A program made the position numbers and the translations under genes. 32,000 nucleotides of DNA, taken from contig NZ_JAQQEG010000025.1 in assembly GCF_046027395.1 (NCBI RefSeq), positions 67,601 through 99,600 on the forward strand. Direction: 5' to 3'. Source of the DNA: Paraburkholderia dipogonis (GTDB lineage Bacteria; Pseudomonadota; Gammaproteobacteria; Burkholderiales; Burkholderiaceae). The notes under the pieces were generated by a model. That model was not told the DNA's origin. It worked only from the letters and a program-made list of their open reading frames with translations, and ran no database searches. Below are positions 9,531 through 25,455 of this stretch, piece after piece (position 1 is the first letter of the stretch; each line of letters begins with the position of its first letter).

Positions 9531-9607
9531 CGGGGTGTAGCTTAGCCTGGTAGAGCGCTACGTTCGGGACGTAGAGGCCGGAGGTTCGAATCCTCTCACC
9601 CCGACCA
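9531..9607 (+). tRNA. tRNA-Pro (anticodon CGG)
   Basis: Manual cloverleaf. Acceptor CGGGGTG/CACCCCG, D arm GCTT..GAGC, anticodon stem CTACG/CGTAG with loop TTCGGGA (CGG), T arm GGAGG-TTCGAAT-CCTCT, discriminator A, encoded CCA. Confidence 0.9.
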
Positions 9608-9612
9608 GATTT
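9563..9612 (+). repeat. attL: 50-bp direct repeat (3' half of tRNA-Pro from the anticodon loop, plus 5 nt)
   Basis: TTCGGGACGTAGAGGCCGGAGGTTCGAATCCTCTCACCCCGACCAGATTT is identical to 25406-25455. The flanking bases differ on both sides. Confidence 0.9.
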
Positions 9613-9751
9613 TGTTTAAAAATCAACGGCTTAGCGAATTTTGCCGTTGCAGATGTACTACAGTAAGCTGTGTAGTACACACCCTTGATAAAGCCTTGCG
9701 AAACTCTTTTGTTCGCAGGGCTTTTTTCATTGCAACTACAACAACGCAATC

Positions 9752-11200
9752 ATGTCCATAACTACAACAACAAACACGACATCATCCACTCAGGCAACGT
9801 CCAAAACCAACCGGACAGTGCCCATCCCAGCGACGCTCGAAAGTATCAAGGGCTATCCAGACAAGCTCAAGATCTACTTGATGCCTGCCAGTTCGCACTG
9901 GCAGGTCAGATACTACGACGGCCTCAAGACCATCAAGCGCAGCGCCAAGACTTCAGACAAGCGCGAAGCCATCACGTTTGCCAAGACATTGTGCCAACAG
10001 GTCATGGCAGGACAATTCACGAGCGCATCGCCAGCACATCAGACCGGTTTCGAGTATTGGACGCAAAAGATGCTCGAATCGCAGCAAGGGCGCGTCGATC
10101 GCAGGGAGTTCTCGGACGATGCGCATCGCAACGACAAGTACATGCTCGAAGCGAAAATCTTTCCGGAGTTCCGCAGCCGCCCCATCAAAGACGTGACGTT
10201 CGAACTACTAGACCAGTTCGTAATCAAGCTGAGCGCTGAAAAGCTCGATCCCTCGACGATCCAACGTTACGTGGGCATCATCAATAAGGTGCTTCAGTAC
10301 GCAGCAAATCGAGGAGCAATCGACACGCTGCCCCGCTTTCCGAAAATCAGCAAGCAAGACAAACCACGCGCTTGGTTTAACCAATCGCAATACGAAAAGC
10401 TGTACCGACGAGCGAAGGCCCTTATCGGCACAGAACACGAGATTTCGTCACCAAGCGGCAACGGCAGACAGGACGAAACCCGCAAGCTCAAAATCACGGC
10501 CGACCTGTACAACATGATCGTTTTCATGGTCAACAGCTTCATTCGGCCGACTGACCTGAAGAACATGCAGCACAAGCATGTCGAAATCATCCGTGACGAG
10601 CACACGTACCTGCGGCTATCACTGCCTGAGAGCAAGAAGCACAGCAAGCCTATCGCAACGATGGAACGTGCCGTTGACGTGTACGAGCGCCAACGCAAAC
10701 TGTACGCGGCGGACGATCTGGCAAAGCCGGATGACTACGTGTTCATGCCCCAGTACTCGAATCGAGACACCGCGTTAAAGCGCCTGCAGCAGCAATTCAA
10801 CTTCCTGCTGGACGACCTCGGCATGAAAACCGATGCTCGCGGCAACGAGCGTACGATCTACAGTTTGCGTCATACCTCCATCATGTATCGCTTGCTCAAT
10901 GGGGAAGGCATCGACATGCTGACGCTGGCCCGTAATGCCCGTACATCCGTCGAAATGATCGAACGCTTCTATGCCAGCGAGCTTACCGGCGAAATGAATA
11001 TCGACGTGATCCAGTCGCAGCGCAAACGCAAGAACAAGCGAGAGGCCGAAGCAGAAGCACCGGATGGGAAAGCAGCCGACACGTCGAAAGTGAAAAGCAA
11101 GGCGGGCACGACTCCGGTAAGTCCGTCTGCCATGCCTGGGACCGGTAGTGGAGTACTGAACCTTCCGGCCAGTTCTATTCCACCGCTGTCGCTGTCGTAA
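9752..11200 (+). CDS. tyrosine-type site-specific integrase
   Basis: 482 aa. The C-terminal catalytic region has ...IRPTDL.., YSLRHTSIMYRLL, ARNARTSVEMIERFYAS (R..HxxR..Y layout). It is followed by a low-complexity basic/Ala-rich tail. The gene is immediately adjacent to the tRNA/attL. Confidence 0.9.
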   Translation: MSITTTTNTTSSTQATSKTNRTVPIPATLESIKGYPDKLKIYLMPASSHWQVRYYDGLKTIKRSAKTSDKREAITFAKTLCQQVMAGQFTSASPAHQTGFEYWTQKMLESQQGRVDRREFSDDAHRNDKYMLEAKIFPEFRSRPIKDVTFELLDQFVIKLSAEKLDPSTIQRYVGIINKVLQYAANRGAIDTLPRFPKISKQDKPRAWFNQSQYEKLYRRAKALIGTEHEISSPSGNGRQDETRKLKITADLYNMIVFMVNSFIRPTDLKNMQHKHVEIIRDEHTYLRLSLPESKKHSKPIATMERAVDVYERQRKLYAADDLAKPDDYVFMPQYSNRDTALKRLQQQFNFLLDDLGMKTDARGNERTIYSLRHTSIMYRLLNGEGIDMLTLARNARTSVEMIERFYASELTGEMNIDVIQSQRKRKNKREAEAEAPDGKAADTSKVKSKAGTTPVSPSAMPGTGSGVLNLPASSIPPLSLS

Positions 11201-11649
11201 CTGCTCTTCGCGTGGCCGGACTTTTCGTCAAATCCGGCCTTTCCTTGATGCCGCTGGATTTCCGGAAAATTGGGTATTCGGATTCCGTGCTTGAGCACTT
11301 CTTGTGCGATGCAGGAGTCGCCACGTAAAGCGATCGTTGATTCGAAGGCACAGAACGGCCACTTTGAGACGTTCGACTGCTTCGCGCAAACGGCTGCTCC
11401 CGGATTAAACTTGCCCCCTAACGTCGCGTTCGTGTATCCCGATTGCGCGCATACCATCGTGCCATCGGCCCGCGCCTTTTTCGCAACACGAACGCTATCT
11501 CACATCAACAAGTTTCGCGGCCAGGCAGCCACGCAGGCCACGATAGCGTTCGGCCACCAACGAGCTTTTCTTCCGGTCGAATCGTCCCTAATTTGCGCGT
11601 AACATAGGGACGCCGACCGGACCTCGACACCCGTTTTGGAGACGCCTAC

Positions 11650-12792
11650 ATGCGACTTGCTGACTTCATCTCGCGAGACATGGAGCCGATTCTGGCGCAA
11701 TGGGAGGCGTTCGCCGCCACCCTTCTGCCGGCGGCGGCAAACATGGAATCGTTGGCGCTGCGCGACCACGCGCAGCAGATTCTTCTCGCCGTGGCAAAGG
11801 ACTTGCAGACTTCGCAAACCAGGGAAGCACAACGCGAAAAATCAATGGGGCGAGGGCCCACTCTGATCGACGCCACCGAAACAGCCGCGCAAGCCCACGC
11901 CCTTCTGAGAGCGAGGGCCGGCTTCAACATCAACCAGCTTGCCGCCGAATATCGCGCACTGCGCGCAAGCGTGCTTCGCTTATGGATCGACCATTGCGAG
12001 CCGGAAGCGGCTGATCTGGACGACATCATTCGATTCAACGAAGCAATTGATCAGGTACTTGCCGAATCGGTCACATTTTTCAGTGCACAGATCGAGCAGA
12101 ACCGTAACCTTCTGCTTGGCATGCTGGGGCACGACATGCGCAGCCCTCTGCAGGCGATTCAGGTGACCGCGTCGTGTCTGGCAGCACTGAACGCCGGGGA
12201 GCAAATATCGGAAGCCGCCGGCCGCCTGATACGTAGCGGGGCCCGAATGCAGGCGTTGCTTGACGATTTGAGCGATTTCAATCGGACCAGACTGGGCTTG
12301 GGCATCAACGTCATACCCACCAGTGTCAATCTCGCGGACGTGCTTGCCGACGAGCTGGACGAGTTGCGCGCGGTTCATCCTGACAGGCAGATTGAGCTGC
12401 ACGTGAGTGGCAATTCACAGGGGGTCTGGGACGGCCACCGCCTGCAACAATTGATCGGAAATCTTGTACTCAATGCCATTAAGTACGGGGCACAAGACAC
12501 TCCAGTGCACGTGACAGTGACTGGCGACGTAGCACTTGTTCGTATCGACGTCAGCAACCGCGGACCTGCGATCGATCGCGCCACGCTGGCGCGCATTTTT
12601 GATCCCTTGATGCGGGGTCCGGACCATCAGAGCAAAGACGACAGGGCGGATGGCCTCGGACTGGGACTCTATATTGCAAGCGAAATCGCCAAGGCCCACC
12701 ACGGTGCGATCGAAGCGCGGTCCGGCGAGACAGAGACCTCCTTTTCAGTGTCACTCCCACGTGCGGACGACGCGGGACGAGGGGCTGGATAA
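11650..12792 (+). CDS. cytoplasmic sensor histidine kinase (no adjacent response regulator)
   Basis: GGAG RBS before the ATG. H-box LGMLGHDMRSPLQAI, N-box LIGNLVLNAIKYG, G-boxes DVSNRGPAI and GLGLGLYIASEIAKAHHG. No obvious TM segment. Confidence 0.85.
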   Translation: MRLADFISRDMEPILAQWEAFAATLLPAAANMESLALRDHAQQILLAVAKDLQTSQTREAQREKSMGRGPTLIDATETAAQAHALLRARAGFNINQLAAEYRALRASVLRLWIDHCEPEAADLDDIIRFNEAIDQVLAESVTFFSAQIEQNRNLLLGMLGHDMRSPLQAIQVTASCLAALNAGEQISEAAGRLIRSGARMQALLDDLSDFNRTRLGLGINVIPTSVNLADVLADELDELRAVHPDRQIELHVSGNSQGVWDGHRLQQLIGNLVLNAIKYGAQDTPVHVTVTGDVALVRIDVSNRGPAIDRATLARIFDPLMRGPDHQSKDDRADGLGLGLYIASEIAKAHHGAIEARSGETETSFSVSLPRADDAGRGAG

Positions 12793-13045
12793 TTGACCCG
12801 ATGAAAAGGCAATATCGACCTGAATCACTTGGCGGAGAGTCTTGAACGCTACCGTACAGACGTTCCCTCTGTGCCGTGAGACGCTGTCGCTTCCTACGTG
12901 CATCCGGCAATCGCGAGTCGCCCGAGCGGGTTTGCGGACCCGTTGCAGTTGGCAGAGCCCCCCCCGGTCCTTGTTAGGAGCGGGCGCCAAACACCACTGG
13001 ATTTCTCGGGCTGACCGCGATCCGGAAGTCAAAAGAGGAAGCATC

Positions 13046-13438
13046 ATGTCGGCGCAGAGAATCTCCTACCGGCGGTATCTGGATATTTCCTGTAAGCGTC
13101 GCTCAGCCGTGAGCGATCGAGATATGAACCGCCCTCGCCGGCGAGCCGCCATCGCTTTTTCAGACAACGTTCCGCTGACCCACGGCCATTTCGACCTGTC
13201 GCAGAGCAGGGTCGAAATTTTGTTGACGATTGCGCACGAGCTGTTCAATCGTTTGACCCCACTGCGACTCGCGGTTCAAACCCTCCGCACGGCATCTCCG
13301 GATCAGCCAGAGATACTCGGGGCGATTGACACGATTGACCGGGAGATTACCAGGATCGCGAGCCTAGCAGAGGATTTGATGGGCCACGTCTTTTCAGGCG
13401 AAAGGTTTGCCGACGTAAACGCACCACGCCAGGGCTGA
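13046..13438 (+). CDS. small DHp(HisKA)-like protein lacking an ATPase domain
   Basis: Strong RBS AAGAGGAA 5 nt before the ATG at 13046. The 130-aa product has an H-box-like helix LLTIAHELFNRLTPLRLAVQTL and a second helix LGAIDTIDREITRIASLAEDLM. No N/G boxes follow. Confidence 0.5.
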   Translation: MSAQRISYRRYLDISCKRRSAVSDRDMNRPRRRAAIAFSDNVPLTHGHFDLSQSRVEILLTIAHELFNRLTPLRLAVQTLRTASPDQPEILGAIDTIDREITRIASLAEDLMGHVFSGERFADVNAPRQG

Positions 13439-13569
13439 CGGTCGGGGCAATGCGCAGCGACATTCTTGCCGTTTGTTCGACGCGCTCACACGGCTTCGTT
13501 ACGTGATCCTGTCAAGACGACGCCTACGCATGCCGTGCGGTGCGGATCAGATGCCTGGGAGCGAAACAC

Positions 13570-14289
13570 ATGACGAACGAACATCGTGCCAAAGAGAATC
13601 ACTTGCTCAGTGTTCTTCCGGACGCAGAATGGGCGCGTCTGGCAGCGCACCTGGTCCCTGTCAATATGCCCCTGGGGCAGGTTGTGTATGAGTCTGACGC
13701 AAACGTGGAGAACGTCTATTTTCCGAGGACGGCAGTTGTATCGATGCTGCACCTGATGCATGACGGAACGCCCGCAGAAATTGCGATCGTGGGTAACGAA
13801 GGACTCGTTGGGATCGCGCTTTTTATGGGTGGAGAGACGATGCCAAACAGGGCCATCGTGCAAAGCGCCGGGCAGGCATATCGCCTGGATGCCCGAATCC
13901 TGAAGGAGGAATTCGACAGAGCTGGTCCGGTGCAGCGGCTATTGCTACGCTATACCCAGGCATTGATCACGCAGATGGCCCAGACGGTCGTTTGCAACCA
14001 GCATCACTCGATGGACCAGCAAATGTGCAGATGGCTGCTGCTCAGTGTCGACCGCCTACCGCTGGACGAACAGAAAATGACGGTTGAACTGATTGCGAAC
14101 ATGCTTGGGATCCCAAGGGCCGGCATGACCGAAGTGGCAATGAAGCTGCAGGATGCCGGGTTGGTACGATGCAGCGGTAATCATGTTGAGGTGCTGGATC
14201 GGCCGGGACTCGAAAAGCGCGCGTGCGAATGCTATGGCGTGGTGAAACGGGAGTTCGACCGACTGTTGCCCGATATACAGGCGATATAA
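13570..14289 (+). CDS. Crp/Fnr family transcriptional regulator
   Basis: MTNEHRAKENHLLSVLPDAEWARLAAHLVPVNMPLGQVVYE...VYFPRTAVVS is a cNMP-binding-like barrel. The C-terminal HTH is ELIANMLGIPRAGMTEVAMKLQDAGLV. A GGGAG motif lies upstream of the ATG at 13570. Confidence 0.85.
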   Translation: MTNEHRAKENHLLSVLPDAEWARLAAHLVPVNMPLGQVVYESDANVENVYFPRTAVVSMLHLMHDGTPAEIAIVGNEGLVGIALFMGGETMPNRAIVQSAGQAYRLDARILKEEFDRAGPVQRLLLRYTQALITQMAQTVVCNQHHSMDQQMCRWLLLSVDRLPLDEQKMTVELIANMLGIPRAGMTEVAMKLQDAGLVRCSGNHVEVLDRPGLEKRACECYGVVKREFDRLLPDIQAI

Positions 14290-14772
14290 AGGTTCTGGCC
14301 TGGTTCGCCTGATGTTGGCGTTACTCGCTGCGGTCTGTCGCTGGGCGCGGATCGTTCGAGCGAGTATCCAGAGTGGCCGAGCCGCAGAGCGTCGCATTTT
14401 GATCTGCGAGCGTCTCATACTAGCGTGAGATCGGACGACCGTGACGGTAGGCTGGCTGAAGTGGGTCGATAGTTGCCCGATACTCCACACATGCCCATGA
14501 TGTTCGCTTCTCGCAACGCAACATGCTTGTGAACATCAACCGCTGAATCCGGATACCCGGAAAATAGCAGCGTAGCTAACATTTCCCCTACGGCAAACCA
14601 GACGTGCAGCCATGCGCTTGGCCGGTCTGTTCGATACCTGCGCAACTCTGCATTCAAGCAACCCGCCAGAACGCCGTTAATCACATGCAGTCGGTTCGAC
14701 CGACGACCATCTGAATGCGCATACATCACTTCTGGCGTTCTTCCTTGCCCCAACATCCACCCAACACATTAA

Positions 14773-15405
14773 ATGGCATCCAACACGTCAACAGATAATC
14801 GCGAATCACACAACGAATCGGCATGCGAGGCAATGGCCTTCCAAGTGCTCAATCAACTGTCGGAGATGTACGAAAGCCTCGGCATCGATAAGACTGCTGC
14901 GGATTTCAAGCCGGACATCATCGATCAGCTCGTGGCAGCGGAAGCCGACCCGAACGACATTGAAGACGGCTTTGCCGACCGCGATGTCAGCAACCTAGAC
15001 ATGATGCACCTCTCGTGTGCGTATGCTCTTGGCGCGCTCGCGTCATTGGCCGAGGCAAACCGCGAAAATTCCTGGCTTGGGATCGCTCACGCACAGTATT
15101 GGATGGGCGTTGCATTTGGCATCGGATTCATGAAAGCCTTTCGCAAGCAAGCACTGTCTGAACGAGGCTCGGCAGGTGGACTTGCTCGTAGCGCCAAGTT
15201 CGAGCCGTTAAGGCAGCATGCCCGAAAACTTGCTTCGGAGGGCAACTACAACTCCAGGCTCCATGCTGCCATGAAGTTGGAAAAGGAAGTTATCGCCGAA
15301 GCGAAGCGCTTGGAGATTGAGGTAAAGAGCGAGACGCTCTACCGCAGAATCTATGACTGGCTGAAGGGCATGACCTTCAAACGCCATCAAGGCAAGAAAA
15401 ATTAG
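14773..15405 (+). CDS. hypothetical protein
   Basis: 210-aa ORF with protein-like composition (acidic N-terminal half, basic helical C-terminal half). No clear SD, so the start is uncertain. I recognised no family. Confidence 0.5.
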   Translation: MASNTSTDNRESHNESACEAMAFQVLNQLSEMYESLGIDKTAADFKPDIIDQLVAAEADPNDIEDGFADRDVSNLDMMHLSCAYALGALASLAEANRENSWLGIAHAQYWMGVAFGIGFMKAFRKQALSERGSAGGLARSAKFEPLRQHARKLASEGNYNSRLHAAMKLEKEVIAEAKRLEIEVKSETLYRRIYDWLKGMTFKRHQGKKN

Positions 15406-15539
15406 CCACTTGCTTGCCAAACGGAAGCGAACTTTTACCGTTTGGCAAGTACGCGGATATCATCGAAAACCGCTCCGCAATAAAGTAGAACCGTCGATTC
15501 ACTGATCGGCAAATTCCTCAACTTTACAGGAGCATTTTC

Positions 15540-16364
15540 ATGAGCGACACGACGCAACAGACCGAAATCATCCGCCTCGCGGAGTATCAATCGCCGGTAC
15601 CTCTGGCGCAAACGATCACGGCACTCGAGACCCGATTCACGGGCGCGCACAACGCATTGCACGAAACCCTCCGCGACATCTACGGCACCCACCTTGCCTA
15701 CATCGTGAACGCGGCGCCAGAAGAACGCGAAAAGAATCGCGCAATTCTGGACGAGGCGTGCAAAGCTAAGCAAATCGGTACGAACGACCAGACTACCGAC
15801 CTGCACAAACTCGTCAAGCTGGTTGTCACCGTGAGCCCGCAACTCACGTCCGGATACGTGCATGTCTTCTCTGTCGCGCAAGCACTGAAAAAGACCCCGG
15901 GTGAATTCCTCAAGTGGCTCAAGGAAGCAGGTGGCATCGAAGCCGTGCGCAAGAAGTTTCTCGCGGACGGGGAGATTAACCTCAAGTACGTCTCCGGCTC
16001 GAAGCGCGAAAAGAACCGCTCGGACAAGGTTGCCAGCGCCCGTGATGCCCTGCAAGCGACACGTTGCATTATCGACGCGCCTGCACTCGCGGACGCGGAT
16101 CTTGATCCAGTGGAGAAGCCGACTGAGTACGTCGCCATCGTTGTGCGTAACCCGGACGGCAGCATCGATATCAAGGGGTTCGTCTCCAGCAAGAGCCTGA
16201 TCGATTCCGCATACTTGGAGCATGCCGCCGAACAGACTCAAAAGACTACGTCCGATACCAGCGGAACACCCGCTGCAACGGTAGCACAGGCTGTCACCCA
16301 ACCTCCGGCCAAGGTGCCCGCCGAAGACCTCACAACCATCGCGGACGCACTGATCGCTGTTTAA
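15540..16364 (+). CDS. hypothetical protein
   Basis: 274-aa ORF preceded by an AGGAG RBS. The overlapping antisense ORF (15435..16301) is Arg/Cys/Leu-rich and looks spurious. Confidence 0.6.
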   Translation: MSDTTQQTEIIRLAEYQSPVPLAQTITALETRFTGAHNALHETLRDIYGTHLAYIVNAAPEEREKNRAILDEACKAKQIGTNDQTTDLHKLVKLVVTVSPQLTSGYVHVFSVAQALKKTPGEFLKWLKEAGGIEAVRKKFLADGEINLKYVSGSKREKNRSDKVASARDALQATRCIIDAPALADADLDPVEKPTEYVAIVVRNPDGSIDIKGFVSSKSLIDSAYLEHAAEQTQKTTSDTSGTPAATVAQAVTQPPAKVPAEDLTTIADALIAV

Positions 16365-16417
16365 TCCATCCGGTGGTCAGGATGACCTTGACCACCATTT
16401 ACATAGGAATACGAAAT

Positions 16418-17119
16418 ATGAATCTCAACACCATGATCTATCCGTCTGCTTCCGCAGAATCCACAATCCGTATGCTCATCACACCCGGGCACTCATTTCC
16501 GGGCACGAAGCGGAACGGCATCATCCTCCACGGCCCGTTCGGTACAGGGAAGTCGAGCTGCGCAAAGCTCCTGCCTGCTGACATCGAAGCCAAATACTCG
16601 ACGCAGAAGCCGAACGTGCGTCACGAAAACTGTATGGCCGGAAACAACGGCGTCGGCCTGATCGAGTCCATCGATAAACAGAGCAAAGGCTACCCTCTAA
16701 GCGGGAGCTTTCACTACGTCATTCTTGACGAGGCCGACAATCTGACAGCGGACGCGATGAAACAGCTTAAATGCGTCATGAATTCGGTTGACGCAAACGG
16801 CCTGTTTACTACGGCCTTCATCATGACGACAAATCACCTCAACCGTATTGACGCGGGCGTAAGATCGAGAAGCCACTGCATTCCGTTCGCGCCGGAAAGC
16901 ACGGACGTCTGGATTCCACTTGTCCGAAATCTGCTCGACGAACACGGCGTACCGAATGTCAGCAGAATCACCGACAGCTACATTCGAACCAATGTCATCG
17001 CCAAGGGCAACGATCCCCGCTCCATTCTCGCAAACAGCGAGATCGTAGCGATACAGCTAAAAGCCGCGATTGTCCAACGTCAAGCGCAAGTGCAGGCTCC
17101 CGCGCCCAGGACGCCGTAA
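16418..17119 (+). CDS. clamp-loader (RFC/DnaX)-like AAA+ ATPase
   Basis: Walker A LHGPFGTGKSS. Walker B VILDEADNLT followed by AMKQLKCVMN. Sensor-1 FIMTTNHLNRI. SRC-like box GVRSRSHCIPF. I chose the ATG at 16418 (AGGAA upstream) over the track start at 16373. Confidence 0.75.
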   Translation: MNLNTMIYPSASAESTIRMLITPGHSFPGTKRNGIILHGPFGTGKSSCAKLLPADIEAKYSTQKPNVRHENCMAGNNGVGLIESIDKQSKGYPLSGSFHYVILDEADNLTADAMKQLKCVMNSVDANGLFTTAFIMTTNHLNRIDAGVRSRSHCIPFAPESTDVWIPLVRNLLDEHGVPNVSRITDSYIRTNVIAKGNDPRSILANSEIVAIQLKAAIVQRQAQVQAPAPRTP

Positions 17120-17348
17120 GCCAGTACCAGGCCTGTCCCGGCATTACTTTGATTGGACAGGCCTGTACGCCCAGCGATAGGTTTGACCTAGCACATGGAT
17201 CAAGCGACGATCCGCCTGAGTCCACCGCATCAACCTTTTCTTGATGATCCAGTAACCCCTCGCTACCCTCCTTATATCGATGCGTCATGCATCTGGCATC
17301 GTTGAAGTCAACGCAGATATAAGATCAACATCCACAGCTTGGAGTTAC

Positions 17349-17783
17349 ATGTTCGCGATCACACGCTTTCACAATTTCATGTCGCTGTACCAAGGCCGGT
17401 ATGCAACCGCCCTCGCGAAAACGCTCAATACTTCCGTATTCGCGGCGAAGGCGCTGGACATCGGGCTTTCCACTGGCGAAATCTCGCTCGACAAGTTGCA
17501 CCCGCTGCTCGGGTGCAGTCGCGGTCAGGCAGTCGGCGCTGCGTTCGACCTACACGAGCAAGGTCTAGCCGAGGACATCGAGTCCACGAAAAATCGGAAC
17601 GGCGAGTATTTCCTCGTTCCCATCGATCAGCGATGCCAAGCCGCTCGGCTATATCGTGCCAAACTGGAGAAACTCAGCCGAGATATGGGCCTGTACGATG
17701 TCCTTGAGAAAGCGTTGCCATCCTTGCAGGTGATTTTCATGGAAGCGCTAACTGCAATGGAGGCCAAACGTATCGGGCATTGA
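17349..17783 (+). CDS. hypothetical protein, possible winged-helix
   Basis: GGAG lies just upstream of the ATG at 17349. The segment LDKLHPLLGCSRGQAVGAAFDLHEQGLAEDIESTKNRNGEYFLVP resembles an HTH plus wing. This is a weak assignment. Confidence 0.45.
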   Translation: MFAITRFHNFMSLYQGRYATALAKTLNTSVFAAKALDIGLSTGEISLDKLHPLLGCSRGQAVGAAFDLHEQGLAEDIESTKNRNGEYFLVPIDQRCQAARLYRAKLEKLSRDMGLYDVLEKALPSLQVIFMEALTAMEAKRIGH

Positions 17784-17970
17784 CACCCGGCTCACCAACG
17801 CGAGCGCTCAACGTTCAAGGCGGAAGCTATTCCGAGCCGTCGCTCGTAGGTCACACGCCGCCGATCGTATAGGGCAGTAGTCGGCCAGGGCGCGACCTTC
17901 CTCGGATGCGGCGTCCGGACGTTCACATGACCGCTCCAGAACAGCAAGCGGTCATACATCCCGGACGATA

Positions 17971-18357
17971 TCACTCACCAGAGCCTCCGCCGTTCTTCCC
18001 CTCCGGACCCATTCCGTCGCCCACTCTCGGACGGCCCCCATCCCGCTCATCGTTCGGGTCGATGCCCTTCGCCAGCAGCGCGTCCATATTTTCAATCTGG
18101 CGATGCGCACCTTCGATCGAGTCAGTCGGAAACGTCCCACAGCTATAGCGACGCTCCTTACCAGCCCACCTCCCCTCTGTGTGTGGAGAGACGTAAGAAA
18201 TAGACATCCGCGCAGTTGCTCGGTCGCCCAGCAGGACTCGCCGCTCAAACTCAAGACCGAACTTGTCGAGAAGGTGATTGGCCCCTTTCTGATCGGCCAA
18301 CCAGTCGTAAATGTCCGAGTCGGAATAGAGAATCGTTCCGCGTTTTCGCTCTGCCAT
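17971..18357 (-). pseudogene. truncated integrase: Arm DNA-binding (DUF4102-like) N-terminal fragment only
   Basis: AAGGAG RBS and ATG at 18357. ...RMSISYVSPHTEGRWAGKERRYSCGTFPTDSIEGAHRQIENMDALLAKGIDPNDER matches the W..RYR..GK....LG.YP..S...AR.....LL..GIDP pattern of P4-type integrase arm domains. It then runs into a Gly-rich tail and a stop, and no catalytic domain follows in any frame. Confidence 0.55.
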
Positions 18358-18878
18358 AAACCAAAATCTCCTTATTACAAAGAAACTCCAGATTGATCGC
18401 AAGTCGTCAGGATTCCCCCACACCAACTGCGAGCAGGGTGGAGGGGAATTATCCTATCGATTTACAGATTTGTAACTTAAGTGCAACTCTATCGCGCGCA
18501 CATCTTCCAGCGCTACCGCGTCCACCGCGCCTCCGCCAGTTCCGCGCCGAAGATGCGATTGAAGTTCGCAGACACGACCACGCGCGCTCGATCACCAAGC
18601 CGGCACACGCGCATGTCGCCGTTCACGGGGTTTTGCTGGCGTCTCCGAAAACGACTTCGAACACCGGCTCCAGATCGTCTCCGTGCACCAGTACACAAAC
18701 TCGCGACTGTCATCACTGGTCGGCGTCTTGCCTTCACAACTCCCGATGCGTCGCGGAAAGTGCTGACGCCGGATTTCAAGCGCTCGCGTTTCGGACCCTA
18801 ATAGACCTTTCGGTTATCATTTGTGGCTGCCCGGGCCGTGGCGGCGTTGATCCAAAAATCAAAAAAAAGGGTGAGATT

Positions 18879-19763
18879 GTGAGAGCAGTCGTTATTAGCG
18901 CGTTAAACATTGTGATGCCGGTGCCGCATAGTCCTGAACGCTACGTTGAAATGTTCAGGAAGGCATACCGAACCAAGCGGGTGGTCAAAATCCGCGGCCA
19001 GTTTGCTGGAATATTGGGGGCCTTCGACGGTCGAGAGGAAGACGGCTTCTACTACGGGGAAGTTTACAAATTTTACGATTTGAAGCTTACGGGCAAGTGG
19101 CTGAACATGCTCCAGCAAGCGCCAGCGGAAGAGCAGGATCTGGCGGACCTCAAGGTCCCGGAACATTTGAAGCCCGGATTGGAGGCATTCCCGTTCCTTT
19201 TTCATGCGCCAACGCACAGGCTGTTTTTCATTAGTCGCGAGACCAATGAACACCTTGGGCCGGTCGACGCGGGAAGATATTTTCGGGAGCTGTTGAATCA
19301 GCCTCGACTCGTCGACCAGTACGGGCAAGTAAACGTTACGGTCATACCCGATGCCGATTCACTTGAACGGATCCTTGGTCTGCCGGATCTCAGAAAGTTG
19401 CACATCGTCATCACCCCGCCGAACCCTGATGACTGGCACGATCTTGAGCAGGAAATCAGAGACCGTTTGGCGGAGCAAAATGCGGCCACAATGGTAACGG
19501 TCCTCGTTGCAGAAAAAGGTGAATCTCTTGTTCCGAATGGTCCGACGCGCATGCTCTCCGAAGTAGCGCAAAGCAATGGCTACGTCGAGGCCAGGGGAGC
19601 CGTCGAAGGCGGGAAGGTTTCGACATTTTCGACAAAGCAACATCCCATGCTCGCCCCGTCGCAGTACGATCCGGACGTAGAAACAGTTCGGACGGCTCTG
19701 CTAAACGTTGCGGAGACACATCTCGCCCGAATTAGACGACCACGGCCGGCCAACAGAGACTAA
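18879..19763 (+). CDS. hypothetical soluble protein (possibly DUF4747-like; unverified)
   Basis: GTG at 18879 follows AAAAGGGTGAG (alternative ATG at 18915). The 294-aa product has no TM segments. The first 160 codons of the track ORF (from 18393) are an open-frame extension through GC-rich DNA. Confidence 0.7.
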   Translation: MRAVVISALNIVMPVPHSPERYVEMFRKAYRTKRVVKIRGQFAGILGAFDGREEDGFYYGEVYKFYDLKLTGKWLNMLQQAPAEEQDLADLKVPEHLKPGLEAFPFLFHAPTHRLFFISRETNEHLGPVDAGRYFRELLNQPRLVDQYGQVNVTVIPDADSLERILGLPDLRKLHIVITPPNPDDWHDLEQEIRDRLAEQNAATMVTVLVAEKGESLVPNGPTRMLSEVAQSNGYVEARGAVEGGKVSTFSTKQHPMLAPSQYDPDVETVRTALLNVAETHLARIRRPRPANRD

Positions 19764-19766
19764 CTG

Positions 19767-20411
19767 ATGCTACGTGATCTCAAGAGATCGTATAGCGGCG
19801 TCGCAGAGATATTCGCGCGGTATTGGACCGCATACGGAGGGGCAAAGGCTGTATTTTTGTCCCCGTATCTGCACGCGTCGATGGTTCTGACCGCCCTGCT
19901 CGGCCATCTATGGGTGGATGCTGCCTGGTGGGGAGACGCAATTGCCTCTTTGCCAACCATGATCGGGTTTGCGATCGGGGCGTATGCGATCGTGCTCGGA
20001 TTTGGCGACGAGAAGTTCCGCTCGTTGCTTACGCAACGGAGGGATGGGAAAACAAGTCCGTATGTGACGATCAGCGCTTCCCTAGCCCATTTTATAGTCG
20101 TACAGTTGGTCGCGTTAATCGCAGCCTTGATCGGAAAGGGACTGGATTTTGGCCTGCGCGAGGACCAAGGAGTCGGAGCACTAGTATTTCGTGCGGTAGG
20201 TAGCGTCGACTTCGTTCATGAATGGATCGCGCCGATCGGAAATTTCTTGGGGTTTGCGCTATTCATCTATGCCATCCTTACTGCGCTCGCGACCGCGATG
20301 GCAATATTCAGACTGACGACGCTGCTTGAGAGAGAAGCGCCTGCCAGGGGTAGCGCGCGTGAGCGTCCAGCGAATGCGGCGAACGAACCTACAAAGAATG
20401 ACCAGAAGTGA
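19767..20411 (+). CDS. 4-TM integral membrane protein, unknown family
   Basis: The ATG lies 3 nt after the upstream stop (TAACTGATG). There are four hydrophobic spans (AVFLSPYLHASMVLTALLG, LPTMIGFAIGAYAIVLGF, ISASLAHFIVVQLVALIAALIG, IGNFLGFALFIYAILTALATAMAIF) and a charged C-terminal tail. Confidence 0.7.
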   Translation: MLRDLKRSYSGVAEIFARYWTAYGGAKAVFLSPYLHASMVLTALLGHLWVDAAWWGDAIASLPTMIGFAIGAYAIVLGFGDEKFRSLLTQRRDGKTSPYVTISASLAHFIVVQLVALIAALIGKGLDFGLREDQGVGALVFRAVGSVDFVHEWIAPIGNFLGFALFIYAILTALATAMAIFRLTTLLEREAPARGSARERPANAANEPTKNDQK

Positions 20412-20569
20412 TCAATGCAAGACCAGCACGGTTTGATGCGAGCTTGCACACCCCCAACTTCGTTGCAATCGCGCCGCCGCAAGCTGACGTCGAAATACAG
20501 AGCTGGTCGGGAACGTGCTGTTCGGGATCGAGGTTTCAGACGGATCGAATCAGCCAGTCCGACCAGCAA

Positions 20570-21136
20570 TCACACGAGGTCCACGGCTTTGCGCTGCATC
20601 TCGTCATTGACGTCGATATATGCTTGCGTAGTCGAGATGTTGCGGTGCCCGGCGAGCGACATGAGCACGCGAACACCTACGCCTTTGTTCGCCAGATTCG
20701 TGATGAACGAGCGCCGACCTGAATGGCTGCTCGCGCCTTCGATACCTGCTTCCTTGTAGAGCCAGTAGAAGTACTGGCACAGCGTGTTGGCCGTGAAACC
20801 GGCCCGCTTCTGTGTATAGAACAACGGCCTGTCTGGCTGTTTCTTCTTCAAGCTCGCAACATACGCGGCAAGTTCGCGCCGCAGCTTTTGCCCGAGAAAT
20901 ACCGTGCGTGCATGACGGCCCTTGGTCTGCTCAGGAGCAAGTCGAATTTCCGACTTGATCGAGCCATCCGCGTTGACCACGTCCCCAACAAGCAATGCAG
21001 CTACTTCTCCGACCCGCATACCGGCCCAATGCGTCAGTAGCAACATAGCCCGGTTACGTAGCGCATGCCTACGTAGCGAGATATAGGTCAGTACCTGCTT
21101 GAGTTCCTTTTCAGTGAATGTCTTGGCCTGCTTCAT
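20570..21136 (-). CDS. catalytic-domain-only tyrosine recombinase (188 aa)
   Basis: GAGGAA RBS. The full catalytic set appears present: R in WAGMRVGEV, K in TKGRHART, HxxR in HSGRRSF, H in AGHRNISTT, Y in QAYIDV. There is no N-terminal SAM-like/arm domain. Confidence 0.85.
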   Translation of the reverse strand: MKQAKTFTEKELKQVLTYISLRRHALRNRAMLLLTHWAGMRVGEVAALLVGDVVNADGSIKSEIRLAPEQTKGRHARTVFLGQKLRRELAAYVASLKKKQPDRPLFYTQKRAGFTANTLCQYFYWLYKEAGIEGASSHSGRRSFITNLANKGVGVRVLMSLAGHRNISTTQAYIDVNDEMQRKAVDLV

Positions 21137-21151
21137 GTGTTTCCTCTAAAC

Positions 21152-21162
21152 AAATGAATTCC
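21152..21162. repeat. left copy of an 11-bp inverted repeat (AATGAATTCCT)
   Basis: Its exact reverse complement lies at 21507-21517. It sits 16 nt upstream of the recombinase start codon. Confidence 0.5.
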
Positions 21163-21303
21163 TTGTTCCAGAGGATGTATTATTTAGTTATACGAATCAA
21201 TAGAAGAATGACGCGTTGTAGGTATCAGAAGAAACGAACACCTGCGTGAAGAACAAAGGTTTTTGCTATTTGCTTTGGTTTCGTGTTGCGGTCGCGCCGA
21301 ACG

Positions 21304-21318
21304 CATTGGTTAAACCAA
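21304..21318. promoter_or_regulatory. perfect 15-bp palindrome ATTGGTTAAACCAAT in the AT-rich spacer
   Basis: Read directly: ATTGGTT-A-AACCAAT. It lies among five same-orientation GTTCC pentamers (21164, 21356, 21368, 21419, 21449). Confidence 0.4.
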
Positions 21319-21506
21319 TCGACGAGGTATCAGTGATGGCGTATTAGTGACTTTCCGTTCCGCCATGTGTTCCGCGTTCGTATGCAGATCACCTGTCTTC
21401 TATATCTGGACCGTCATCCGTTCCTTGTCTAACTTCCCGTCAGTCGTTGGTTCCTCGTCAGCTACCGTAACTTCTTCGAGGTATTTCTTCACGAAATCTA
21501 TAGCCA

Positions 21507-21517
21507 TAGGAATTCAT
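21507..21517. repeat. right copy of the 11-bp inverted repeat (AGGAATTCATT)
   Basis: Reverse complement of 21152-21162. It lies just inside a 6-bp-stem hairpin (AGAGCA..TGCTCT, 21520-21539) that could terminate the HUH gene. Confidence 0.5.
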
Positions 21518-21613
21518 TAAAGAGCATTGCGTGGTGCTCTTCGAAGTGAAAGCTGCGAGGACGATTACGTCAGCAACGCAGCATGGACTACTTGGTGGGG
21601 TCTTGCTTTATTG

Positions 21614-22126
21614 TTATCGGCTATCAGGAACGTACACATTCCCGTAGTCAACGCTGTCGGCGTTGCCCATGCCGACTTCCTTCGTGATGTAGTTGAGCCA
21701 GTCATCGCCGTACATTATCTGCACGTCGATCTGCTCGTTACCGAAGCTGGTTTTCCGCCATGCGTTACGTATTGCCTCGACTATCTCCTCATGGCTCTTT
21801 TCCTCACGGAAGTTTCCCATGACGCAGTGGTAATGCAGGTTCTTTCCGGTCGCCACACCTTCCAGCACAGGAATCACGTAGTGGCACTTCGGCCCATTCC
21901 CGTACATGCTTCGATTCAGGCGACTCATGAAGTGTCGGAAGTTTTTTCGCGCTTCCTCAGCAGTCAACGTTTGGACTGTCTGCCCTTTGTCCGTTCCGAC
22001 GATTCGATACTGTTTCATCGTGAGCGTAACGGCATGCGTCATCCACGATCGGTAGCCAAGCATCCAGTCGCGTGTCGCTGTCTTTATATCTGTATTTTTC
22101 GTCATAGCCGTATTTATGCCGGCCAC
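21614..22126 (-). CDS. compact HUH-superfamily endonuclease (Rep/relaxase-like)
   Basis: 170 aa carrying the three Rep motifs in order and with plausible spacing: motif I HAVTLTM, motif II (HUH) NLHYHCVMG, motif III (YxxK) LNYITKEV. Start is uncertain (GTG at 22126 or ATG at 22105; no clear SD). The antisense ORF 21527..22138 was rejected. Confidence 0.6.
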   Translation of the reverse strand: MAGINTAMTKNTDIKTATRDWMLGYRSWMTHAVTLTMKQYRIVGTDKGQTVQTLTAEEARKNFRHFMSRLNRSMYGNGPKCHYVIPVLEGVATGKNLHYHCVMGNFREEKSHEEIVEAIRNAWRKTSFGNEQIDVQIMYGDDWLNYITKEVGMGNADSVDYGNVYVPDSR

Positions 22127-22217
22127 GGCGTAACCTGACGGTTAGTGTCACAATCCTATTGATTTCATTGGCAAGCGGCTACATCCTGGATTGCACCAAA
22201 TAACTCAGGAGTCCAAT

Positions 22218-22661
22218 ATGAGCACGCTTACTAGCCTGAAACTCGTCGCCGCAAAGCGTCCCGGCTCGCTGCCGCAGATCGTGCAGCGTCGTAACCGTCT
22301 GATCTCGAAAATCTGGGAACAGACAGAACTCGCCAAGGCTCAGCAAGCTGGCACGGCGTTTCGGCCGACTCTGTTCCGTTCGGTGAAGGACGCAGAAACC
22401 GGCGGGCGCCGTAACGTGGAAGTGCAGAAGCGTGTGCGTGCTTGGTGGTGGACTGCCGAAAACGGCAAAGTCTGCATGCACGTCCGCTACGGAACGAAAA
22501 CTCTCGAACTGGCAAAGGGCAAGACGGCCATCGAGATCGGTACGCTCGATGACCTGATCCCGACACTTGAAATGCTCAAGGTCGCAGTCGCAGCCGGCGA
22601 ACTCGACGCTCAAATCGAAGCCGTCAGCGGTCAGATGCGTACGGGCTTCGTTGGCAAATGA
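22218..22661 (+). CDS. conserved hypothetical protein (island-associated family, name not recalled with confidence)
   Basis: GGAG RBS and ATG at 22218. MSTLTSLKLVAAKRPGSLPQIVQRRNRLISKIWEQTELAKAQ...RVRAWWWTAENGKVCMHVRYG...AVAAGELDAQIE resembles proteins I recall from Pseudomonas/Burkholderia islands. It is divergent from the HUH gene. Confidence 0.65.
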   Translation: MSTLTSLKLVAAKRPGSLPQIVQRRNRLISKIWEQTELAKAQQAGTAFRPTLFRSVKDAETGGRRNVEVQKRVRAWWWTAENGKVCMHVRYGTKTLELAKGKTAIEIGTLDDLIPTLEMLKVAVAAGELDAQIEAVSGQMRTGFVGK

Positions 22662-22856
22662 ATGCGCTGGGGACTGCTTGACCCGGCAGTCCTTGTTCGC
22701 AAATCGGCGCGAATACTTCGTTCCCAAACCGGTTCCAGTTGTATTGCTTATCAGTGCACATCTGTGCTTGCATTACATACTGGGCGGGCGCAACGCTATA
22801 GGAGCCGAATGTGGTTGGAGGCTTCTTGAAAAAAATGGCGGCCTCCATGGCCATCC

Positions 22857-23417
22857 TCACTTGCCGAAAAATTCAGAAAATTGTTTGAAAGACGGGCATT
22901 TCCTCCGAACAGAACCGACGTCGAGCCTTTCGGCAATCAATTTGTTATGTACGCTGTTGACATATGCCGTGGTCTTGTTCGATAGGAGCCACACCTTGTC
23001 ACGGATATATTCTTTCGGCGAGGGAATCGTCTCGGGATGGTGGACCGCTTTCAGTTCCTTTTGCAGATTCAGCGCTGACGTGATCGCGGAAACATCGCTC
23101 AGTAACCACGCCTCCAGTTCTTCCGCGGGTATTACAACAGCTTGCGTAGAAGCTGTGCTCTTTTCCAGGATTGCCTCTAGGGTCGTTCTAAGCGCTTTCG
23201 CATCGTTACGATCCAAATCATGAACGAGCAAAATTTTTGTGCATCCCTTATGCGCCAGATCTTTGCACCACCCTGGGGTCTTCTTCTTGAGTGGTCCGCA
23301 ACCTTTGCCTGTGAAGTGCGCAGTCGAAACGGGCTTGCCCGTGATTTTTCTGGCTAACAATTTCAGCACTTCGACGTCGCTCGGATCCTCGGCGATAATG
23401 CCAATCTTCGCCGGCAT
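22857..23417 (-). CDS. TOPRIM-like protein (DUF4276-like, from memory)
   Basis: MPAKIGIIAEDPSDVEVL supplies the acidic E/D after strand 1. ILLVHDLDRND is a DxD motif. VVIPAEELEAWLL supplies a late conserved E. The C-terminal ...RKCPSFKQF matches my memory of DUF4276. Its ATG overlaps the ATPase stop (TAATG). Confidence 0.75.
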   Translation of the reverse strand: MPAKIGIIAEDPSDVEVLKLLARKITGKPVSTAHFTGKGCGPLKKKTPGWCKDLAHKGCTKILLVHDLDRNDAKALRTTLEAILEKSTASTQAVVIPAEELEAWLLSDVSAITSALNLQKELKAVHHPETIPSPKEYIRDKVWLLSNKTTAYVNSVHNKLIAERLDVGSVRRKCPSFKQFSEFFGK

Positions 23418-24700
23418 TATGATAGCCCTCCGCTGCGCCAATATTCCCCGAGCGAACCCGTTTCCGCGAGATAGGTATGAAGGGCACGCTTGGCATCCTT
23501 CGTCAGCCAATTGTCAAGTTGCTTTACTTGGGTGCCGTTGCGCGCCATTTCGACTACGAAAATATTCTCTGTTTCGAGTTGATCGACGAGCAGATCGGAG
23601 TGCGTCGAAATGAAGGTTTGCTTGGTTTTTGAGTAGGCTTTTAGAGTGTCGACAACGCGTGAGAGGAGGCCGTGATGCACGCAGACCTCTGGCTCTTCGA
23701 CCATGAGCAACCGGCTTGAATCAGTAATTATATAAAAAGCAAGCGCCAGCGTTTTAAACGTTCCCTCAGAGAGCTGGTTGAACGTGATGTAAGAAGATCC
23801 AATCTGTACTTTTGGAATTACAAGTGTCTTCCGCTTCCTGACCTTCTTTACCCCGCCTCCACTGCGAACTTCCGCCGTAGAAGAACTGAGCTCGATCTCT
23901 TTCCACGTGATGCGGCTAAGGAGTCCAAGTTGTTGGCGCGAGACAAACCTACAATAAGCATCATACAGTGCTTCGTTTAGCACCTTTAGCCGGTACAGAT
24001 CGTAGATGAAACGCAAATGAGGTGCCGACGAACCGTACGAGTCTGCTAGACGGCCGTCCTCATCAACTTCGAAGCTGCTCGGACATCGAACAGGATCAGT
24101 GAAGCGCGAGGCACTATAGTAGGTGATCCCTGCGCGAAAATCGGCGATCGACGAAACTGCGTCGACGATTGTTGGGTCCCGCATCAAATCGATTCCCGAC
24201 CGATCGATATCCATTTTGCTGACCTGGCCAAACCGAGCTTCGCCGTTGAACAAGAAAAAATCTTCTTGATAATATTGCGCCTTTGCGCTATCGCGGAAAA
24301 ATTCGATCGGTGGTAAGTTTCGCCACGATTTTGAACCAGTGATACTCTGAAGATTCCAAGCTTCCGAAACCGCAACGAGTTCGTCCCGACGTGTGGATTC
24401 CATAATGCTGAAGCGCATCCTTAATCCAATTCGCTTATCGTTTCCGCCAAGCCTGAACCAAGCAGTAACTTCCGAGTCCGCCCCCTTTCCAAGCTGTTCA
24501 AGTGCTCTCTTATTGAATCGCCCCTGCTTGCTGTTCAACAAGCGAACGGCTTGCAAAATGTTAGTTTTCCCTGCTCCATTGACCCCGATAAGGGCCGATA
24601 GGTCCTTATCGGGCGCAAAGCTGGTCGATAGGCAAGATCTGTAACCCTTGATTTCAAGTTGCTCAAGGCGGACATCTTCCGCTGTTCCGTTTGGCGCCAT
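23417..24700 (-). CDS. ABC/SMC-type (AAA_15/AAA_21-like) ATPase
   Basis: The ATG at 24700 gives MAPNGTAEDVRLEQLEIKGYRS.. Walker A GVNGAGKTN. Signature-like LSEGTFKTLAL. Walker B/D-loop LLMVEEPEVCVH. H-loop FISTHSDLL. The large insertion between Walker A and the signature is typical of OLD/PARIS-type ATPases. Confidence 0.85.
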   Translation of the reverse strand: MAPNGTAEDVRLEQLEIKGYRSCLSTSFAPDKDLSALIGVNGAGKTNILQAVRLLNSKQGRFNKRALEQLGKGADSEVTAWFRLGGNDKRIGLRMRFSIMESTRRDELVAVSEAWNLQSITGSKSWRNLPPIEFFRDSAKAQYYQEDFFLFNGEARFGQVSKMDIDRSGIDLMRDPTIVDAVSSIADFRAGITYYSASRFTDPVRCPSSFEVDEDGRLADSYGSSAPHLRFIYDLYRLKVLNEALYDAYCRFVSRQQLGLLSRITWKEIELSSSTAEVRSGGGVKKVRKRKTLVIPKVQIGSSYITFNQLSEGTFKTLALAFYIITDSSRLLMVEEPEVCVHHGLLSRVVDTLKAYSKTKQTFISTHSDLLVDQLETENIFVVEMARNGTQVKQLDNWLTKDAKRALHTYLAETGSLGEYWRSGGLS

Positions 24701-25011
24701 TCTTATCGCTCGTTTTGATACTAGGAGGAGTAAAGCACCCGACCGTAGCAAAGGTTGGCAGCATTATGCCGCATGGTCAGGACTGTTCTTCTTCGATAGG
24801 TCTCTGCGTATGTCGGTGCCCGCGCGACTACTACCTCTCTGGTTGACGGCAAATGCAGCGAGCTTCTTTAGCACGATGTGAAGCGACGAGGCCTCGGCAA
24901 CGCATCGGGTCGACTACACAATAAGCCGTGGGGAGACAATTGCCCTCGGCTCTACCTCGATCGCGTATTCCAGCCGCATAAATACTTGCACAACCGAGGA
25001 GACTTATTACC

Positions 25012-25197
25012 GTGAGATACGAAGAAATCCTGACCCGCTCCGATCTGCGTGAAGTCAAAGACCTTGAGACGCAGCGTATCGACGCGCAAAAGCTAGCGGC
25101 CAAGCGCCAGACGGTCGCCGCCAAGCGCGCCGACATCCAACATAAGATGCAGAAGCTGCAAAAGCAGCTTGCTGATCTCAACGCAAAACCGATCTAG
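25012..25197 (+). CDS. possible small coiled-coil protein (61 aa)
   Basis: GTG start about 10 nt after GAGGAG. The product is heptad-like and charged (..KLAAKRQTVAAKRADIQHKMQKLQKQLADLNAKP). It is short with no recognised family, so this is weak. Confidence 0.3.
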   Translation: MRYEEILTRSDLREVKDLETQRIDAQKLAAKRQTVAAKRADIQHKMQKLQKQLADLNAKPI

Positions 25198-25405
25198 GGG
25201 CAGCGAGCGGACGGCAGCAAAAGAAGGGCCTGATCACTCGTCATTCGTGTGTACTGTGTAAACACCGGGCGCTCACCAGCTTGAAGTGACTGCTGCTGCT
25301 TGACTTGATAATGTTTAGTTATGTAGATTGCTGACTTTAGTACTTTGTGTAGTACTTGATGGAAAAATCTTTTAAAAACAATGCCAATCCTGATGTTCCG
25401 CATTC

Positions 25406-25455
25406 TTCGGGACGTAGAGGCCGGAGGTTCGAATCCTCTCACCCCGACCAGATTT
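25406..25455 (+). repeat. attR: second copy of the 50-bp tRNA-Pro 3'-half repeat
   Basis: Identical to 9563-9612. The tRNA 5' half is absent here, so this is not a functional tRNA. Confidence 0.9.

Follow-up and report, generated by a model that had tools for sequence, protein, structure and literature searches.

Background

Among abortive-infection systems, Rex has been known the longest. Five Rex-like systems have been described so far by the count of a recent study (PMC12894663), and exclusion that involves both genes, with the membrane protein as the effector of damage, is known only for those of lambda, Sbash, CarolAnn and Pseudomonas putida. The prophage-expressed pairs Sbash gp30/gp31, CarolAnn gp44/gp43 and Butters gp30/gp31 have experimentally shown defence phenotypes; their cytoplasmic partners were tied to DUF4747 by HHpred, the same DUF4747 motif was stated for lambda RexA, and each membrane partner has four transmembrane (TM) helices like RexB (PMC6426596, PMC6426606, PMC7542560). 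Defence by the Sbash and CarolAnn pairs needs both genes (PMC6426596, PMC6426606). RexA, gp30, gp44 and Toast gp42 are dimers with non-specific DNA binding (PMC11077077). RexApp of P. putida is also a DNA-binding dimer, and overproduction of RexA in the prophage-borne RexABpp system has been shown to arrest growth and permeabilise the membrane in a manner that depends on RexB (PMC12894663, 2026). Moreover, 17 'DUF4747/CarolAnn prophage system' operons, located downstream of CapK/CapS regulators, have been listed as predicted immune operons (PMC13373217, 2026). In this study, we report the computational analysis of a cassette of two open reading frames, ORF1 and ORF2, at positions 18879 to 20411 of a 32,000-nucleotide stretch of Paraburkholderia dipogonis DNA (contig NZ_JAQQEG010000025.1, positions 67,601 to 99,600; the whole of this stretch is referred to as the window). 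The cassette is likely to be a RexAB-type two-gene module for abortive infection or phage exclusion carried on a tRNA-Pro island, in which ORF1 would be the sensor that activates a pore formed by ORF2. This assignment is made because ORF1 is a full-length DUF4747 protein with RexA as its best match in the PDB, a gene for a 4-TM protein starts 3 nt downstream and the pair is conserved, and also because of purifying selection on both genes, mobile and defence contexts of related pairs, viral matches of the ORF2 model and the published phenotypes of analogous pairs.

Methods

Protein families were searched for in Pfam, NCBIfam, PHROG and PADLOC v2. Protein models were predicted with AlphaFold, and the ORF1 model was compared with the PDB using Foldseek. 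The search for related loci was seeded with a 19-sequence subset of the ORF1 alignment. The 25 loci used, each with a DUF4747 homologue of 30-85% identity, comprised ten from species-representative genomes, seven from IMG/VR viral contigs and eight from look-ups of distant members (Vibrio alginolyticus, Saccharophagus degradans, Rhodanobacter, Polyangiaceae). Clusters of the ORF2 family were counted at 50% identity.

Results

ORF1 is a DUF4747 protein with a predicted RexA/RdgC fold

ORF1 was found to belong to the Pfam family DUF4747 (PF15931) over its whole length, with an expectation (E) value of 2.2e-63 and a bit score of 214.6, where 27 is the cutoff (residues 10-259; positions 1-253 of the 257 in the model). 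A preliminary description of the window, made by reading the sequence, had noted a vague resemblance of the N-terminus of the first product to this family, and this was strongly confirmed. PF15931 was carried by 49 of 49 ORF1 homologues, and ORF1 also matched PHROG 10040 (E = 4e-99). PADLOC and NCBIfam returned no match, a hydropathy scan revealed no TM segment, and no catalytic motif or enzyme family was recognised in Pfam, PADLOC or NCBIfam, in agreement with the earlier statement that the protein has no recognisable catalytic motif.

The AlphaFold model of ORF1, for which a 43-sequence alignment served as input, had a predicted local distance difference test score (pLDDT) of 93.1 and a predicted TM-score (pTM) of 0.88. 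Only three matches in the PDB were obtained at E ≤ 1e-3, namely two chains of the lambda RexA structure 8TWQ and the RdgC structure 2OWL. Chain 8twq_B ranked first (E = 3e-6, probability 1.00) and the second 8TWQ chain had an E-value of 7e-5; Escherichia coli RdgC occupied ranks 3-5 (2OWL, E = 4e-4), followed by CENP-L, which we take to be the human counterpart of IML3. No catalytic-fold alternative was returned from the PDB. The list is coherent, because the structural relatives named in the paper on the RexA structure are RdgC and two subunits of the yeast kinetochore, IML3 and CHL4 (PMC11077077). The RexA/RdgC-type two-domain fold, a mark of the cytoplasmic component of Rex-like systems, is thus seen in the predicted ORF1 model.

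ORF2 is a predicted 4-TM protein of a large family without a name

The Kyte-Doolittle scan and the AlphaFold helices of ORF2 together gave four hydrophobic helices at approximately residues 28-50, 54-79, 98-127 and 148-190, of which TM1 was the weakest, and the C-terminal tail was charged, as had been noted from the sequence at the outset. The AlphaFold model had a pLDDT of 83.4, with long helices at 54-79, 98-127 and 148-190. The distribution of basic residues suggests that both termini are on the inner side (N-in/C-in). The best-conserved features include an N-terminal segment, YxGVxxIFxRYWxAYGG, predicted to be cytoplasmic, and a GFGDExFR motif at the junction of TM2 and the central loop, which is likewise predicted to be cytoplasmic. 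Within TM3, His108 and Gln113 were invariant in the family.

No Pfam, PADLOC or NCBIfam family matched ORF2, and its match to PHROG was to family 20580 (E = 3e-63). The PHROG E-values of ORF1 and ORF2, with the differences per site given below, show that both ORFs are real, far beyond chance. In a profile search of 1.84 billion representatives, 1164 clusters were recovered at E ≤ 1e-3, of which 455 reached E ≤ 1e-30, so that the ORF2 family is a large one, and it is without a name. In BFVD, the best match of the ORF2 model was a protein of Siphoviridae sp. ctylc9 (probability 1.00, E = 0.017), a virus which also gave the second-best viral match of ORF1. Rank 5 was a 165-aa Sbash protein (probability 0.87, E = 0.43), almost certainly gp31, because this is the sole 165-aa coding sequence among Sbash genes 1-77.

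An S-A-S-[LF]-x-H motif followed by Gln 5-7 residues on was observed inside a TM helix of both ORF2 (residues 102-113, window 20070-20105) and lambda RexB (residues 122-135). The His and Gln are invariant in each family, and hhalign aligned the motifs without significance (E ~0.1). The motif lies in TM3 of ORF2 and in TM4 of RexB, and the likeness is probably a coincidence.

A housekeeping, transporter or metabolic identity for the pair, which the preliminary description had named as a finding that would count against a defence role, was rejected: no such family was found for either protein in Pfam or NCBIfam.

The two genes form a conserved and selected unit

In tblastn searches, an ORF2 homologue (30-77% identity) was located directly 3' of the DUF4747 gene in 24 of the 25 loci, which settles the earlier question of whether homologues of the first gene are consistently followed by a 4-TM gene. 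Where a full ORF was called, the partner started between -4 and +12 nt from the DUF4747 stop. The loci were found in Cupriavidus, Ralstonia, Burkholderia, Polynucleobacter, Azonexus, Pseudomonas, Vibrio, Saccharophagus, Rhodanobacter and Polyangiaceae. The exception (L006, Cupriavidus sp. amp6) had an N-terminally truncated DUF4747 gene, and no partner was detectable in the 579 nt remaining on the contig. In a Zoogloea metagenome-assembled genome (L010), matches to the partner came in pieces only and the gene appears to be disrupted by a frameshift. An adjacent, co-oriented gene for a small 4-TM protein, conserved as a pair with the cytoplasmic component, is typical of Rex-like systems and is found here.

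When all 18 proteins of the island were compared with the related loci by tblastn, matches were obtained for ORF1 and ORF2 only, and none for the 16 others. As no other island protein is shared with the loci, the two-gene module travels alone between otherwise unrelated elements. Comparison of both genes with their four closest homologues gave proportions of non-synonymous differences (pN) of 0.09-0.19 against saturated synonymous proportions (pS) of 0.68-0.88 (approximately 0.1 and 0.8 for ORF1). Since non-synonymous differences are low and synonymous sites are saturated, both genes are under purifying selection.

Related pairs are carried by prophages and islands

The pair was present on seven IMG/VR prophage contigs. 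In a lambda-like prophage of Burkholderia gladioli, it was flanked by the replication gene for VapE on one side and by the terminase gene on the other. In Vibrio alginolyticus (L020, contig ACAQZK010000008, positions 436-7552), it directly followed a series of genes from Rep_trans to Zot at the end of a filamentous (inovirus-type) prophage. The L020 protein cluster has 110 member sequences, which suggests that filamentous phages of Vibrio commonly carry the pair. Other pairs lay in islands with AbiEi/AbiEii, ParDE and resolvases, or adjoined GmrSD, SNF2/NOV_C/methylase genes, or PIN, HNH and a giant YjiV-type helicase. In a descriptive census of 98 neighbour ORFs from 12 loci, phage integrases, portal, terminase, methylases and Type III restriction-modification genes were the leading categories, and HipA and PDC-S55 were also found. 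These neighbourhoods agree with a role as mobile or defence cargo and speak against a housekeeping role. A tblastn search of 50,697 GenBank phage genomes with ORF1 yielded no match; members of the DUF4747 family came from prophages and from viral contigs of metagenomes, and none from the isolated phages of this collection.

Organisation of the locus and of the island

The coordinates of the cassette and of the surrounding features are listed in Table 1. The origin of the window in P. dipogonis is borne out by a 100%-identical protein recorded under this species name. The start of ORF1 was placed at 18879, in preference to the TTG at 18393 up to which the mechanical ORF list reaches, as favoured by the N-termini of 42 homologues (MR..V.ALNIVMP.PHSPERY). 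The 3-nt spacer between the two same-strand ORFs, already reported in the preliminary description and read again here as TAA-CTG-ATG, indicates that they probably form an operon with translational coupling.

Table 1 Features of the cassette and its surroundings (positions in the window)
Feature	Position	Strand	Description
ORF1, rexA-like gene	18879..19763	+	294 aa; GTG start, TAA stop; cytoplasmic DUF4747 protein with predicted RexA/RdgC-type two-domain fold; proposed DNA-binding sensor/activator
ORF2, rexB-like partner	19767..20411	+	214 aa; ATG start; predicted 4-TM inner-membrane protein; proposed membrane-damaging effector
Spacer CTG, 3 nt	19764..19766	+	Between ORF1 stop and ORF2 start
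Upstream non-coding region	18427..18878	+	Presumed promoter site; A-rich tract and GGGTGAG Shine-Dalgarno-like motif just 5' of GTG
tRNA-Pro(CGG)	9531-9607 (feature 9531..9612)	+	ARAGORN; contains left 50-nt attachment repeat 9563-9612
Right 50-nt attachment repeat	25406..25455	+	100% identical to 9563-9612; right end of the 15.8-kb island
Island integrase adjoining tRNA	9752..11200	+	Weak Pfam matches to Phage_int_M, SAM-like domains and Phage_integrase; context, outside the cassette
Integrase arm-binding fragment	17971-18426	-	Arm-DNA-bind_3 fragment
Tyrosine recombinase, 188 aa	20570-21136	-	Phage_integrase catalytic domain only; R, H-x-x-R, H and Y residues readable
ATPase and partner pair	22857-24751	-	2.4 kb downstream of the cassette; PADLOC HEC-01A/HEC-01B

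The earlier picture of a tRNA-borne island, in which the cassette is bracketed by an integrase fragment and a recombinase and lies 2.4 kb from an ATPase and its partner, was borne out. The island extends over 9563-25455 (15.8 kb), with a perfect 50-nt direct repeat derived from the 3' end of tRNA-Pro as attL and attR. Its G+C fraction was 0.49-0.59 inside, compared with 0.60-0.70 outside, and it rose from approximately 0.52-0.55 to above 0.61 past the right repeat. The claim that the cassette occupies the part of the island lowest in G+C did not hold: its value of 0.553-0.558 is typical for the island, and the minimum (0.49-0.52) lies at 21-25 kb. The possibility that the two flanking integrase pieces are halves of a single gene split by the cassette was also rejected, because along the minus strand the catalytic fragment comes first and the arm-binding fragment after it, an order that does not fit a split gene.

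Several other groups of genes were observed on the island. The ATPase of the 22857-24751 pair (443 aa; AAA_21/AAA_15, AriA/GajA/Old-like) overlaps a partner of 216 aa; with PADLOC matches to HEC-01A (E = 4e-25) and HEC-01B (E = 9e-14), this pair is a second candidate defence system. Two divergent genes, one for a replication-associated protein of the REP_ORF2-G2P type (21614-22126, -) and one for a DUF6641 protein (22191-22661, +), could be what is left of a satellite or small replicon within the island. Four same-strand ORFs without an assigned role (14773-15405, 15540-16364, 16373-17119 and 17280-17783) may be a further cargo module; the third encodes an AAA+ ATPase with a weak PADLOC match to TRIP13 (E = 7e-4), and apart from this ATPase no families were found in the run by Pfam or PADLOC. 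Additionally, the region 11650-14289 encodes a histidine kinase (HisKA and HATPase_c), a further fragment with HisKA and a regulator of the Crp/Fnr type; regulatory genes of this sort are unusual cargo beside defence genes.

Discussion

Comparison with described systems

The cassette has in common with lambda rexAB a sensor gene followed by a membrane gene, tightly linked on the same strand of a mobile element. The cytoplasmic partner is of similar length (~280-294 aa), with RexA as the top structural match of ORF1, and four TM helices are predicted for ORF2 as for RexB. ORF2 exceeds RexB (144 aa) by 70 residues and differs from it in its charged tail and in its conserved N-terminal segment, predicted to be cytoplasmic. 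Unlike lambda rex, the cassette has no adjoining cI repressor gene.

With the Sbash, CarolAnn and Butters pairs, the cassette shares a DUF4747-linked cytoplasmic protein and a 4-TM partner. The ORF2 model weakly resembles Sbash gp31, the central cytoplasmic loop of which is functionally critical (PMC6426596, PMC6426606), and the most conserved ORF2 motif is at the same loop. In contrast, gp30 of Sbash and gp44 of CarolAnn are ~370 aa long and give no Pfam DUF4747 match by HMMER, the hosts are Actinobacteria, and the two genes of these pairs overlap by 26-41 nt. RexABpp of P. putida prophage P1 (PP_5643/PP_5644) is, like the cassette, proteobacterial and combines a RexA-fold DNA-binding protein with a 4-TM protein, on a prophage; it is the best experimental model for the likely action of the cassette. 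A published primer sequence for the PP_5643 locus gave no match in IMG/VR, and a search of IMG/VR for RexA returned nearly only identical lambda copies. In two lambda-type Rex loci, from Sodalis sp. TME1 (L053) and the Logan contig of SRR13380320 (L054), rexB was intact and rexA absent or fragmented, so that RexB may persist without RexA in some of these loci.

RdgC, a recombination-associated DNA-binding ring dimer (2OWL/2OWY), is the second-best structural match of ORF1 and its fold is common to RexA (PMC11077077). However, ORF1 gave no match to Pfam RdgC at E ≤ 1, and RdgC is encoded by a stand-alone housekeeping gene without a membrane partner, whereas the ORF1 gene has a membrane gene as its partner and is carried on mobile DNA.

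The preliminary description had compared the cassette with Kiwa (KwaA and KwaB, DUF4868), which also has two genes, one for a cytoplasmic protein and one for a membrane protein with several passes. This holds as a loose analogy of layout only: the gene order of Kiwa is the opposite, with the TM gene first, and no PADLOC model for KwaA or KwaB and no Pfam DUF4868 matched ORF1 or ORF2. Kiwa identity was rejected on these grounds, with 0 PADLOC families for both proteins. The statement that no named system could be matched is incorrect, since Rex-like systems match through lambda RexA as the top structure and through the published DUF4747 links. The broader interpretation in the preliminary description, a cytoplasmic sensor with a membrane effector in the style of abortive infection, fits all the evidence; the suggestion of an undescribed system does not stand, as DUF4747 pairs are already published. 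Of the searches that it had recommended, hidden Markov models and Foldseek placed ORF1 in PF15931 and in the RexA fold, and left ORF2 without a Pfam or PADLOC family and with a weak structural match to gp31.

Weighing of the RexAB-type assignment

A number of results weigh against the assignment. BLASTP of ORF1 and ORF2 against lambda RexA and RexB returned nothing; ORF1 gave no match at E ≤ 1 to the RexA models of Pfam (PF15969) and PADLOC, and ORF2 none to the RexB models (PF15968 and PADLOC), all of which are matched by the lambda proteins themselves. Using hhalign, the ORF1 family aligned with RexA, including a 3-sequence RexA profile, at a probability of 0.1%, the ORF2 family aligned with lambda RexB and (with 27 and 47 sequences) with a 13-sequence RexB profile at less than 1%, and comparisons with CarolAnn gp44/gp43 and with the gp30 and gp44 pair gave 0.1-0.2%. 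A phmmer/hmmsearch profile search of the PDB did not recover 8TWQ. The published links of DUF4747 to RexA, gp30 and gp44 were called weak HHpred matches by their own authors (PMC6426596, PMC6426606, PMC7542560), and by HMMER neither CarolAnn gp44 nor gp43 had a Pfam match. No experimentally tested bona fide DUF4747 member was found in the literature. The match of ORF2 to gp31 is weak (E = 0.43), and small helical bundles easily look alike. The neighbour census carries no enrichment statistic, and a sigma-70 consensus scan of the + strand upstream of the cassette detected no convincing promoter. Finally, the global TM-score of ORF1 against RexA was only 0.32, with a root-mean-square deviation of ~15 Å; as a mobile hinge joins the two domains of RexA, the low score is probably explained by another angle at this hinge in the predicted model. 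Since all sequence comparisons were negative, the link of the pair to Rex rests on the fold shared by ORF1 and RexA, on layout, on topology and on context.

The roles of the two proteins could in principle be those of the Butters pair, with ORF1 as the antiviral or toxic effector, clamping or occluding DNA like RdgC, and ORF2 tethering and silencing it until infection. The RexA-like gp30 of Butters is the main antagonist and is bound and modulated by the 4-TM gp31 (PMC7542560; summarised in PMC12894663), RexA acts on the lambda switch independently of RexB (PMC11077077), and the predicted RdgC/RexA DNA-binding fold of ORF1 would suit such a role. We nevertheless consider this polarity unlikely, given that four of the five Rex-like systems on record depend on both genes and have the membrane protein as effector (PMC12894663), that the invariant polar His and Gln in TM3 and the conserved cytoplasmic loop of ORF2 exceed the needs of a passive anchor, and that the degraded copies L006 and L010 show both genes decaying together.

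A different question is whether the pair is for defence at all, or serves its mobile element by modulating lysogeny and induction or recombination, as RexA biases the lambda switch and RdgC regulates RecA, or as an addiction module of the island. The pair is always on mobile elements, the fold predicted for ORF1 is RdgC-like, and RexA has a part in the bistable switch of lambda, for which exclusion may be a by-product, as its authors caution (PMC11077077). Here and at several other loci, however, the pair is on decayed or non-phage islands without an adjoining cI/cro-type switch; it moves as an isolated unit between unrelated elements, which is typical of defence cargo, and three related pairs have direct defence phenotypes, so that such a role seems quite improbable. 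It is more doubtful again that the likeness to Rex arose by convergence, in which case the cassette would be of a new kind, a DUF4747 enzyme or sensor with an unrelated membrane transporter or signalling protein and a mechanism other than depolarisation. The want of detectable sequence homology of ORF1 to RexA, and of ORF2 to RexB or gp43, would be expected from convergence, as would the YxGVxxIFxRYWxAYGG segment, which has no counterpart in RexB. Against this, the fold search was specific to RexA/RdgC with no catalytic-fold alternative, no catalytic motif or enzyme family was matched, and layout, sizes, topology and contexts all fit the Rex pattern.

Proposed mode of action

In the RexAB-type reading, ORF1 would be a cytoplasmic dimer with the RexA/RdgC clamp fold that binds DNA non-specifically, by analogy with RexA, Sbash gp30, CarolAnn gp44 and RexApp. 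Its trigger during infection may be a protein of the phage or an intermediate of replication or recombination. Once switched on, it would engage the cytoplasmic face of ORF2 at two conserved sites, the N-terminal segment and the central loop with its GFGDExFR motif. ORF2 could oligomerise in the inner membrane as a channel or pore, and opening of this pore would depolarise or permeabilise the membrane, lower ATP and stop growth and phage replication, so that the infection aborts or the cell becomes growth-arrested. For DNA binding, dimerisation, ORF1-ORF2 interaction, pore formation and the phage phenotype, this scheme draws on homologous and analogous systems.

Conclusions

Systems of this kind have already been published, as has the placing of DUF4747 operons among them; the cassette is most likely a further example and opens no new category of biology. 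What is new is the partner family, which has no name and no detectable homology to RexB, and the finding that PADLOC v2 misses the pair. It is possible, although we hold it only tentatively, that the pairs of DUF4747 with the ORF2 family form a large Rex-like clade of their own (at least ~1,160 clusters of the membrane partner), with an effector evolutionarily unrelated to RexB. If so, DNA sensors of the RexA/RdgC fold would have acquired different 4-TM pore proteins as partners on more than one occasion, and ORF2, with its N-terminal segment, GFGDExFR loop and His and Gln of TM3, would be a new type of infection-gated membrane pore. The family of DUF4747 and 4-TM pairs is broad and mostly proteobacterial, and it far exceeds the narrow RexAB family of lambda in size and diversity. 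For annotation, a DUF4747 gene followed by an ORF2-type 4-TM gene can be taken as a Rex-like candidate defence pair, and the partner family merits a profile of its own. As a well-conserved and tractable member with high-confidence models, the P. dipogonis cassette could help to define how a DNA binder of the RexA fold opens a membrane pore.

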